Positions 48,101 to 51,100 of a DNA stretch of 64,000 nt are shown in pieces. Within the stretch, counting starts at the first letter, position 1; each line of letters opens with the position of its first letter. Made by a program: the position numbers. The stretch is taken from NCBI RefSeq assembly GCF_057098645.1, contig NZ_CM169472.1. One strand, given 5' to 3'.

Positions 48101-51100
48101 ACTGTCTCAGGCCGCATTAGGTAAGCTGGTCAAAGTGGCTCACGTAACAATTTCTCAATGGGAAAGAGATGAAACACAGCCAGCGGGGAAGAGATTATTC
48201 GCACTGAGCCAGGCGCTTCAGTGCTCGCCGACTTGGCTTCTTTTTGGAGATGAAGATAAGCAACCAGGCGAACCGATCCCAGATAATCAGCCAGTCAATC
48301 TGACAGAAGATCAAAAAGAGTTGCTTCAACTGTTCGACGCACTGCCTGAGTCAGAGCAAAAGGCTCTGTTGTCAGAGATGCGTGCTCGAGTTGAGAATTT
48401 CAACAAACTTTTTGAAGAACTACTCAAAGCTCGCAAAAGAAGCGCAAATAAATAACCCCCCTTTTTTTCGCAACTCTCTGTAATAAAAAGCACAAACTTT
48501 CAAATACTTGTGTTTTTTACATCAAGAAGCTTAGGTTTTTCTACACAAAAAGCTTGACCATAACTCTTAGGCTATTCTAAATTCTACTCATCAAGACACC
48601 GCACGGTGTTCTCAGCAAACAGTTCCGCTACCCGGCGTTAAGGGGAAGCAGAGGATTTCTCAGTGGGCGAAGTCAAACATCAGAATGGAAGGCGTCCAGG
48701 GATCAGCAAAGAAACAGCGATGGCGCTTTATATTGATATCAGCGCCATTGCCGGACAGGTAAGAGTTATCAGAGCGGTAACTAAGCGGTATGCGCCTTTA
48801 CTTCAGAAAGTCTCTGGTGAGTGCACCGAAGATATTGTCAACGATTTCGTCATCGAACTGCGAGGACTCATCTTCAGTTACAAGGTGACCACAATTTTTG
48901 CAGATGGCTCCCGCGAAACTGTCAGAGCCCTGCGGCTTAAAGGATGTGTCAAAGACTTAGCCACCACATTCTGGGCAAGAAAACTTGATTGTATTCATAA
49001 CCAATTTCCTCTCGAGTAACAGACCCCTCAGAGGATACCACCTCGCCTGACGTGGTTAAAAAGCAGGCAACGCTAACCACAAGGAGCCGACATGCAGAAA
49101 CGAGACCCCGTCATCATCGCGCCAGACTATACCGATGATGAACTTTATGAGTGGATGCACCAGAAAATTAAGGCGGTGCAGGACCTGAAATGGGCCAATG
49201 AAGCCAGGGCTAAGCAGGCTGAAAATCTGTCCGCTCTGGAGCAGGATATCACCAATCTGGAAAAAGCAGCGGCATTAAGCATTGCCAGAATGATTACATA
49301 CCCACGTTAATAGCTAACCAACGAGGCTAATAATGGAATTTAAAGATTTACCAACGCCATTACAGGAAATGGCATCGAATATAGTTCGTTCACAACTGGC
49401 TACTCTTGACCTTAGTACCGCAGAAAAAGAAACCATCGATAATATGGTTCGTAATGTGCGCAATGCTTTTTCTGGGCTATATGGTTCTGATAATCAAAAG
49501 CAGGAAAGCGATGTTAATAAACGGGTAATTTCTGTTTGCGTGAATGGCCATGTTCTTTCATCAATCAAAACAGAAACGGCGACAGTCTTCGATTGCCTTT
49601 GCATTGTACAGAGCCTTGTTGATGCCCTGTTTCGTTCAGTGAATTTAGAAAATGATGCAAATCTGCGAGGGCGCATAATAGCACATCCATATGCACATAC
49701 TTTAGGCTCTGTGGATATCAAAGATCCCACAAATCTTTAATGAAATAGTTAACGCGAATTGTACTTGCTCTTTCGGTTGCTTTCAGAATACGCGTTGAAA
49801 CTGCTGGCGGTAATTTGGTATTCCATTTATTAAAATCATGCCCGGGAAAGTACTCTTCGAAAATACTTTTAACTGCAGACTCGCCTATTGAAATGCTGCT
49901 TACCATGCGATTTTGATAAAGGCATTTAGCAATAAGAGTTGATTTTAACATTCACCCTCCTGAGGGTTGGTAATTAAGGAGTTCTCCACGGGTGAAGTGG
50001 AGTGCGTGCGCCGGACACGGGTGAACATCCGGCACTGACAGTTTACTGAAAGGATATTTCTCTGAAAAGTCAGACCATAACGCGAAAGCGCACGGCGAGG
50101 TAGCTGGTTCATAGATAGCCTGTCGTTAAATTTTCGTCGACCGTGCGCTTCCGGTTGTGGCAATCCGCGAAATGGCGCGGCGGTAAGTATGGAGGGGTTA
50201 TTCCTTCCCCGTTGAGGACACCGGGTTGTCAGGTTGACCATACGCTTAAGTGACAACCCCGCTGCAACGCCCTCTGTTATCAATTTTCTGGTGACGTTTG
50301 GCGGTATCAGTTTTACTCCGTGACTGCTCTGCCGCCCTTTTTAAAGTGAATTTTGTGATGTGGTGAATGCGGCTGAGCGCACGCGGAACAGTTAAAACCA
50401 AAAACAGTGTTATGGGTGGATTCTCTGTATCCGGCGTTAATTGTTAACTGGTTAACGTCACCTGGAGGCACCAGGCACCGCATCACAAAATTCATTGTTG
50501 AGGACGCGATAATGGAAACGTTATTACCAAACGTTAATACGTCTGAAGGTTGTTTTGATATTGGTGTTCTGCTCAGTAACCGGGAGTTTACGGAAGATGC
50601 CATTAAGATGAGAAAATATGAACCTTATCTTCTCAATGATAATTCCATACTTTCCAGAATTGCCCTTCTTGAACTTGGTATTATCGGAGAACAGCAGTGA
50701 CTTCAGCATTTGCACTGGTGATGACCGTTTTTCTTATAACGGGTGAGCCACAAAATGTGATTACCGGAATTTATGACAGTAAGTCATCCTGCATTCAGGT
50801 AAGGGACGAACAAAAAATCCCCGGTGAATGCCTCCCGTTAAAAAAAGTATCGCTGAACCTGAATAACGAAATACCGGCTGGATAACCCGCCAGCCATATT
50901 AACGCCATACCAACGGATTAAAAATGCCAGCAATGGCAGGGATTCGTTCACCCTGAAATCTGTAATGAGGTTAAAACAAAATGAGTAAAGTCTTTATTTG
51001 CGCCGCCATTCCGGACGAACAGGCAATAAAGGAAGAAGGTGCCGTCGCTGTAGCCACTGCCATTGAAGCCGGTGATGAACGTCGCGCCCGCGCAAAATTT

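Follow-up and report, generated by a model that had tools for sequence, protein, structure and literature searches.

The window analysed here is a stretch of 64,000 nucleotides (nt) from contig NZ_CM169472.1 of NCBI RefSeq assembly GCF_057098645.1, to which all positions refer unless a locus is named, and it includes a lambdoid PPompW-type prophage of Shiga-toxin-type Escherichia coli. In the early-left operon of this prophage there is a pair of small convergent genes, referred to here as ORF3 and gene B, which overlap at their 3' ends. A preliminary description of the region had drawn attention to two small open reading frames (ORFs) at 48663-49019 and 49333-49740, of 118 and 135 amino acids (aa). 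Both are present, although the conserved start of the first, ORF1, is the ATG at 48720, giving a protein of 99 aa. The 135-aa frame, ORF3, is a real gene, but to view it as a stand-alone ORF is to miss both its fusion nature and its antisense partner.

A two-gene cassette between ydfC and dicF

ORF3 (49333..49740, + strand) is a frame of 135 aa with an ATG start, present in the ORF listing and in RefSeq as WP_000394552, and it belongs to PHROG 1363. Gene B (49718..49951, - strand; WP_000920491 in RefSeq) encodes 77 aa and matches PHROG 10348 with an expect value (E) of 1.1e-47. The 3'-3' overlap of the two is 23 nt long (49718..49740) and is coding on both strands. From the sequence and the annotation, gene B lies antisense inside the + strand operon, between ORF3 and dicF-dicB.

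Together, ORF3 and B make up a cassette of 634 base pairs (bp; 49331..49964, both strands) that is a precise insertion relative to Qin of E. coli K-12. The BLASTN junction is between K-12 locus positions 2562 and 2563, between ydfC and the spacer that precedes dicF. The 135-aa ORF had been described as additional to the Qin-type arrangement, which agrees with its position within this insertion, but the inventory of the operon had overlooked the 77-aa minus-strand gene that came with it. Of 5426 complete E. coli genomes, 658 (~12%) have the cassette, among them O157:H7, O26, O103, and O111 strains; it is found as well in PPompW prophage records and phage Evi. The spacer between the cassette and dicF (49952..50285), which is upstream of B on the - strand, is common to K-12 and to prophages with other cassettes. 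It has 78-95% identity to K-12 and to loci L009 and L012, and in Serratia the sequence upstream of B is in part homologous to it.

ORF3 as a fusion

A GAGG ribosome-binding site is located 6 nt ahead of the ORF3 start codon at 49333, and 224 homologues of ORF3 were found, with a match to PHROG 1363 at E 4.8e-47. PHROG matches, alignment, and AlphaFold2 support an N-terminal module (N-module; residues 1-55, 49333..49497, + strand, beginning MEFKDLP). The first ~50-70 residues of ORF3 also match PHROGs 6937, 2151, 9419, and 33007, and the N-module recurs in E. coli prophage proteins of 124, 133, 137, 201, 208, and 212 aa with unrelated C-termini. Across residues 1-50, 16 columns of the alignment are invariant, and AlphaFold2 predicts a helical hairpin made of helices 8-24 and 32-46, with a predicted local distance difference test score (pLDDT) of ~70-75.

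The remainder of the protein is a separate domain, here called A (residues 63-135, 49519..49740, + strand), recognized through an exhaustive HMMER search and PHROG 23433, the latter matching this part of ORF3 at E 1.7e-08. In the HMMER search ORF3 residues 59-133 match stand-alone proteins of 79-90 aa, and in other genera the A domain has stand-alone homologues of ~76-107 aa. Two other matches from this search, P0182 and P0204, are repeat-rich and on reading were judged to be low-complexity artefacts. The ratio of non-synonymous to synonymous substitution (dN/dS) in the A domain is 0.17-0.40. The AlphaFold2 model has a beta-hairpin (65-79) and helices (85-111), followed by a conserved tail, with the motif EAN..GKTI.H, that is predicted with low confidence.

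Judged from these sequence matches, ORF3 is a fusion protein in which a helical module common to other prophage proteins precedes the A domain. Elsewhere, A occurs either alone or fused to varied N-termini, which include the E. coli N-module, a cysteine-rich segment, and a YdfC-like domain. The last of these is seen in locus L078, where a 203-aa prophage protein has a YdfC-like domain (PHROG 1744, E 5e-10) joined to A. The A-domain genes of loci L076-L078 are 193 and 203 aa in length; the window has ydfC and ORF3 side by side as two genes. A general three-gene module of YdfC, A, and B was considered and rejected, as there is YdfC-like sequence beside A in just 5 of 31 loci outside E. coli.

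A polymorphic site

At least five convergent pairs of forward and reverse genes, the pair in the window included, occupy this site in E. coli prophages. The allele in the window has a forward gene of 135 aa and a reverse gene of 77 aa (PHROG 10348). In the others, a forward gene of 201 aa, consisting of the N-module, A, and an extra C-terminus, faces a reverse gene of 63 aa (PHROG 2605), and forward genes of 133, 208, and 124 aa face reverse genes of 76 aa (PHROG 18692), 69 aa (PHROG 4274), and 138 aa (PHROG 7249), respectively. All of the forward genes of the five alleles begin with the N-module, and all of these families are of unknown function. The right-hand flank that they have in common starts at or just upstream of each reverse start codon and runs on as the K-12 spacer.

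Toxin genes are found nearby in related prophages. In loci L010 (2194-2672) and L096 (1293-1577), the interval between the repressor gene and the first early-left gene of E. coli-type prophages contains a PaaA2-ParE pair or a HigB toxin gene, which marks the neighbourhood as a cargo hotspot. Lambdoid early-left operons had been described at the outset as hotspots for superinfection-exclusion and anti-defence genes, and that this one is a cargo hotspot is borne out by these genes, by the convergent pairs, and by the alternation of ORF1 with ydfA-ydfB that is described below.

Conservation and pairing of A and B

Homologues of B are present in Klebsiella, Raoultella, Serratia, Dickeya, Xenorhabdus, Yersinia, Morganella, and Salmonella, and in these genera the protein is nearly always exactly 77 aa, at 55-72% identity. 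The dN/dS of gene B is 0.08-0.33. AlphaFold2 predicts an all-alpha fold with pLDDT mostly 72-89, falling toward the C-terminus. The protein has a mass of 8.9 kDa, and across genera its isoelectric point (pI) ranges from 4.9 to 9.5, so that its net charge varies widely; with such a swing, it is unlikely that B is a DNA-binding regulator.

In Serratia and Klebsiella prophages, B follows shortly after the CI repressor gene and points against the early-left genes. There it converges on a gene of 77-79 aa, which is the A domain, with the identical overlap of 23 nt. In these two genera the pair precedes rdgC or yfdP genes, and no DicB was called in the vicinity. Between the CI repressor gene and the A-B pair of Serratia locus L003 there is also a 307-aa gene (5713-6636, - strand; PHROG 3243, unknown function). 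In size and position it may recall BstA of phage BTP1.

Pairing was assessed in 80 loci from a scan of viral contigs together with six assembly contigs, in which B is at 57-100% identity. Wherever B is intact, an ORF encoding the A domain converges on it and overlaps it by 23 or 26 nt. The start codon of A is not ATG in three of the viral loci, and in L080 and L081 (~4001-4244) a 13-bp tandem duplication in B shifts the frame. In the 201-aa variant A faces another reverse gene and B is absent; no B lacked an A. What these loci show directly is the layout of A and B, their conservation, and their pairing: ORF3 and B converge, overlap by 23 nt at their 3' ends, are nested in an operon, and have been conserved as a pair. 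Purifying selection is evident in the ORF1 core, the A domain of ORF3, and B, and ORF1, ORF3, and B are all genuine accessory genes annotated in RefSeq.

Expression signals around gene B

A strong Shine-Dalgarno sequence, AGGAGG, is placed 5 nt ahead of the B start codon. In 15 out of 15 aligned sequences from outside E. coli, an extended -10-like motif, TGnTAnnnT, is present ~45 nt ahead of this ATG, and B therefore looks like its own transcription unit in these relatives. Upstream of B there is also an inverted repeat (~50011-50040, - strand), which is GCCGGA...TCCGGC in E. coli and GCCTG...CAGGC in other genera. In loci L003, L008, and L066-L092 it is just upstream of the -10-like motif of the relatives, and one position changes jointly on both arms. 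This repeat could be an operator. A promoter-like site, TTAACA-16-GAGAAT (50447-50420, - strand; a pattern match only), would, if active, transcribe antisense across dicF toward gene B.

With a coding overlap of 23 nt, the transcripts of ORF3 and B must overlap if both genes are expressed. Folding energies at the overlap and at the Shine-Dalgarno sequence of B are the same as those of shuffled controls, with no significant RNA structure, and a bidirectional terminator or other RNA structure at the overlap was rejected on this basis. The hairpin in the 5' untranslated region of B in other genera is weak, at 5 bp and -3.3 kcal/mol.

ORF1 and its start

The maximal frame of ORF1 in the ORF listing (48663..49019, + strand) is 118 aa from a GTG start, with an AGAGGA ribosome-binding site 7 nt ahead. 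The conserved core is 99 aa from the ATG at 48720 (48720..49019, + strand; WP_001240336). RefSeq gives ORF1 as 99 aa, and PHROG 21318 (unknown function) covers only residues 20-118 of the longer frame, at E 8.6e-67. Homologues in Klebsiella, Citrobacter, and metagenomes (56-60% identity) start at the equivalent of M20, and each of these starts is preceded by its own Shine-Dalgarno sequence and an in-frame stop. There are 31 invariant columns common to the core and the Klebsiella and Citrobacter homologues, and the dN/dS of the core is 0.21-0.39. In the 19-codon extension, 11 of 57 sites vary without codon-position bias, and in one variant, common to five loci, a 1-nt deletion frameshifts the extension and leaves the downstream ATG frame untouched. 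Taken together, the alignments indicate that ORF1 is a real gene whose conserved protein begins at ATG 48720 and not at GTG 48663. Against this, the GTG has the better Shine-Dalgarno sequence and may be the start used in this strain. The ribosome-binding sites that had been reported for the two ORFs are both there, AGAGGA before GTG 48663 and GAGG before ATG 49333. The AlphaFold2 model of ORF1 has an alpha-alpha-beta-beta-alpha fold (pLDDT 72).

The region 48648-49091 has no similarity to ydfA (DUF1391) and ydfB of K-12. ORF1 and ydfA-ydfB never co-occur, being present in 19 and 29, respectively, of 48 loci, and ORF1 is an interchangeable promoter-proximal module that alternates with ydfA-ydfB, replacing these genes rather than being added to them. 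In Klebsiella, homologues of ORF1 follow cro in the early-right operon, and in other loci they precede kil. It is most likely a separate, early-expressed accessory protein directed at the host. A role as an antiterminator like lambda N, or as an analogue of cII, was rejected because the position of the gene varies and there is no arginine-rich motif; the arginine-rich N-terminus expected of an N-type antiterminator is absent from the conserved core, in a test that did not extend to nut sites.

The operon and the prophage

The remaining genes are those of a Qin-type operon. A helix-turn-helix repressor (48048-48455, + strand; Pfam HTH_3, E 4.3e-14; also in RefSeq) lies opposite a divergent Cro-like gene (Pfam P22_Cro, E 3.2e-13). 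Downstream of the repressor gene, a consensus scan found a site resembling a sigma-70 promoter, TTGACC-18-TAAATT (48554..48583, + strand), with 9 of 12 matches; it is no more than a pattern match but probably represents the early-left promoter, of the PdicB type. The leader just past it (48589-48647) has 95% identity to the stretch directly upstream of ydfA in K-12 Qin. The gene ydfC (49092..49310, + strand; 72 aa, PHROG 1744), so named in RefSeq, is 95% identical in DNA to that of K-12. Beyond the cassette and spacer are the DicF small RNA (50286..50337, + strand; Rfam RF00039, 76.7 bits against a gathering score of 48, E 2.3e-16), dicB (50512..50700, + strand; RefSeq; Pfam DicB, E 1.8e-37), and a ydfD-like DUF1482 gene (50697..50885, + strand; Pfam PF07358, E 2.8e-15; RefSeq), downstream of which RefSeq annotates an exonuclease, an excisionase, and an integrase. 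An Rfam match to STnc100 (50335-50544, + strand), spanning the dicF-dicB spacer and the beginning of dicB, is below threshold, at 38.7 bits against a gathering score of 47 (E 4.4e-06).

The dicBF operon of K-12 Qin is ydfA-ydfB-ydfC-dicF-dicB-ydfD (PMC5069750), and the gene order in the window agrees with the Qin annotation: repressor and Cro-like gene, small ORFs, ydfC, DicF, dicB, and DUF1482. The early-left operon of the window is a dicBF operon of the Qin type under repressor control. With Qin it has in common a DicA-like repressor and divergent Cro-like gene, the leader, ydfC, the spacer, DicF, dicB, and DUF1482. It differs in having ORF1 in place of ydfA-ydfB, in having the 634-bp two-gene cassette between ydfC and the spacer, and in its repressor gene, which cannot be aligned in DNA to dicA of K-12.

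Chromosomal prophages of E. coli O26:H11, O103, and related strains of the Shiga-toxin type match the 3-kilobase stretch around the ORFs at 100% identity. In strain RM8385 the RefSeq annotation has the integrase gene, and so the end of the prophage, beside ompW. PPompW is the name of the element in GenBank phage records, and phage Evi, a free phage with a sequenced genome (LR597642), has the same layout. The equivalent of 48000-51000 has an IS600 inserted within it in NZ_CP031922.1 and NZ_CP074946.1, one of which is O26:H11, and the match is split in two. Just past the replication genes (~44000-44800, located from L001 1-811) there are an adhesin gene, paa, and a frameshifted fimbrial gene.

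Searches for related families

Remote-homology searches and structure prediction, as had been suggested for the two ORFs, identified no known fold and no Pfam or NCBIfam family for either. That neither has a recognizable domain is confirmed by searches of Pfam, NCBIfam, PADLOC, and PDB sequences. Single searches of these with ORF1, YdfC, ORF3, and B gave only sub-threshold noise, such as Protein L B1, ROS_MUCR, and IL-12. None of these four proteins has a match in PADLOC-DB 2.0 at E <= 1, and across 22 homologues of B there was one stray PADLOC match, at E 0.011. Profiles made from the B, A-domain, and ORF1 alignments found nothing consistent among PDB sequences, nor did scans of these alignments, member by member, against Pfam (for B, also PADLOC). 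Foldseek searches against BFVD returned uncharacterised homologues only, and the predicted models have no fold match in the PDB. For anti-restriction and anti-CRISPR proteins (ArdA, Ocr, KlcA, and Acr) there was no Pfam match and no PDB fold match, within a scope of Pfam and the PDB as opposed to a dedicated Acr catalogue. The suggestion of superinfection exclusion or anti-defence thus gains no direct support from PADLOC, Pfam, NCBIfam, or fold matches. Families 21318, 1363, 23433, and 10348 are all labelled "unknown function" in PHROG, and a literature search by protein accession and PHROG number found nothing.

The A-B pair as a possible noncontiguous operon

In phage phi80 a defence gene, tai, is placed antisense in the late operon and is expressed in lysogens, while ati, the operon-strand gene that adjoins it, is made on induction and counteracts Tai (PMC11364771). 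Direct binding has been demonstrated for the TaiSalB-AtiSalB pair (PMC11364771). The genes tha and ith of phage 80alpha of Staphylococcus aureus follow the same logic with opposite polarity (PMC11087260). By analogy with these, it is possible, with a probability of roughly 35%, that the A-B pair is a noncontiguous operon tying two antagonistic proteins to the switch between lysogeny and lysis, with B active in the lysogen and neutralised by ORF3 on induction. Here we infer that the genes are expressed, that they are antagonistic, and that B is active. In the lysogen the early-left promoter would be repressed and B would be made from a promoter of its own, acting usefully for the lysogen, most likely by excluding or aborting other phages. 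On induction, early-left transcription would yield ORF3, and head-on transcription across the overlap would damp B. The A domain may then bind and neutralise B, probably via its conserved low-confidence tail, such that the prophage would be spared its own product. The predicted shape of the A domain, a small folded core and then a conserved tail of low predicted confidence, would suit an antidote. The other convergent pairs at the site may be alternative alleles of the same logic.

As in phi80, an antisense prophage gene interrupts an operon of the lytic cycle, a small operon-strand gene adjoins the antisense gene, and there are variant forms in other prophages, although Ati is known to be induction-only whereas for ORF3 this would follow from its place in the operon. 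The two systems differ in location, Tai and Ati being in the Q-dependent late operon and A-B in the repressor-controlled early-left operon, and in size, TaiEcA being ~26 kDa and B 8.9 kDa. No similarity in sequence or fold was seen, though no Tai or Ati sequence was compared directly. Counteraction in phi80 was shown by experiment; for A-B it is proposed. Tha and Ith may offer a parallel in that, within a noncontiguous operon, an immune protein and its inhibitor are tied to the switch between lysogeny and lysis, through antisense transcription and inhibition at the protein level, as is proposed for A-B. The inhibitor there is also a small protein that had previously been misannotated. The differences are that the polarity is reversed, with the defence gene on the lysogenic cI operon and the inhibitor antisense, that Tha is a HEPN RNase while the A-B proteins have no such domain, and that the host is Gram-positive. 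A noncontiguous operon has an opposite-strand gene between the genes of an operon, as B is here. Phage Evi and the prophages of Klebsiella and Serratia have this layout too.

Several results weigh against this interpretation. There is no similarity to known families of defence proteins, toxins, or antitoxins. The consensus scan found no minus-strand promoter in 49952-50285, and the TGnTAnnnT motif of the other genera is missing from the E. coli spacer despite its partial homology. When ORF3 and B were modelled by AlphaFold2 as a linked chain, with 21 paired homologues, no confident complex was predicted (predicted template modelling score, pTM, 0.35). The 201-aa variant keeps its A domain, and hence A can function, or at least persist, without B. 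The constant presence of A beside B is partly forced, since the last 23 nt of B are the last 23 nt of A.

Alternative explanations

Some of these results could also reflect genes that have nothing to do with each other, ORF1 and ORF3 being early proteins for host takeover or anti-defence that act on host targets, B an accessory gene (moron) expressed in lysogeny, and the overlap an inheritance of tight packing. Lambdoid early operons are built as mosaics from small independent genes, many unrelated C-termini follow the N-module, and both the 201-aa variant and the lack of a confident complex fit with independence. This explanation is somewhat less likely, however, as it leaves the pairing of A with B and the exact length of the overlap to be kept down to 57% identity, in at least eight genera and on different prophage backbones, and every other cassette at the site is likewise a convergent pair. 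It is very improbable that one or both ORFs are chance frames or decaying pseudogenes, a suggestion that is already largely refuted. ORF length alone is not beyond chance, as many spurious ORFs of 100-185 aa are in the same listing, and since such frames are common in the region coding status rests on conservation. Close E. coli variants of ORF1 do differ by many non-synonymous changes, and the frameshift common to five loci is in its 5' extension, but for the ORF1 core, A, and B the dN/dS between genera stays well under 1, lengths and motifs are conserved, the genes are present in a functional phage, Evi, and only the 19-codon extension of ORF1 looks non-coding. Conservation across genera and purifying selection also mean that these are neither random ORFs nor structural proteins, the two possibilities that the preliminary description had set against its own proposal.

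An addiction-type module, in which B would be a small toxin and A a labile antidote that serve to stabilise the prophage or to abort infection, is unlikely. It has in its favour that both proteins are small (~77 aa) and strictly linked, that A may be found without B but never B without A, that A has a folded N-terminal core and a conserved low-confidence C-terminal tail like many antitoxins, and that PaaA2-ParE and HigB modules are in the same region of related prophages. The resemblance to type II toxin-antitoxin systems consists in two small, tightly linked genes, one with such a core and tail, in a prophage cargo hotspot where relatives have PaaA2-ParE and HigB. In type II systems, however, the genes form a co-directional bicistronic operon, whereas these are convergent and overlap at their 3' ends, and they match no toxin-antitoxin family. 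The variable net charge of B is a further difficulty, and the antidote would be repressed in the lysogen just when the toxin was expressed, which would be lethal unless B were harmless to the host. Less likely still is a transcriptional brake, in which head-on reverse transcription would limit leaky early-left read-through into the toxic dicF-dicB and the proteins would be secondary. In E. coli all of the reverse genes do lie between the promoter-proximal genes and dicF-dicB, with the common spacer upstream, and DicF and DicB are toxic inhibitors of cell division (PMC5069750). Yet purifying selection on B and A is clearly at the level of the protein, the Klebsiella and Serratia pair is upstream of rdgC or yfdP where no DicB is called, and K-12 Qin does without any cassette.

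To return to the pair as a noncontiguous operon, the idea may be extended to the site as a whole. In E. coli lambdoid prophages, the interval from ydfC to dicF would then be a polymorphic site at which each allele is an effector and antidote arranged as a noncontiguous operon, with A-B an unrecognised defence-plus-self-immunity or toxin-antidote system of the Enterobacterales, turned on and off through convergent, overlapping early-left transcription. This wider proposal is a tentative one.

Implications

As first described, the two ORFs are ordinary hypothetical proteins of a phage early operon; extended to the A-B pair and its site, they are a moderately interesting and easily testable lead. 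If the proposed interpretation is not correct, the annotation is still cleaner with respect to the start of ORF1, the fusion structure of ORF3, and the overlooked gene B. The cassette is directly upstream of the division-inhibiting dicF-dicB (PMC5069750), and the five alternative cassettes at one site are a comparison set for finding more pairs of this kind. In the two known cases, an architecture like that of A-B encodes defence together with self-immunity, which is the basis of the analogy drawn here. If it holds, A and B would be a new and very small two-protein family among the few cases in which a prophage has both a weapon and its own antidote, and the principle of the noncontiguous operon would apply not just to late and lysogenic operons but also to the early-left operon of lambdoid phages of enterobacteria.

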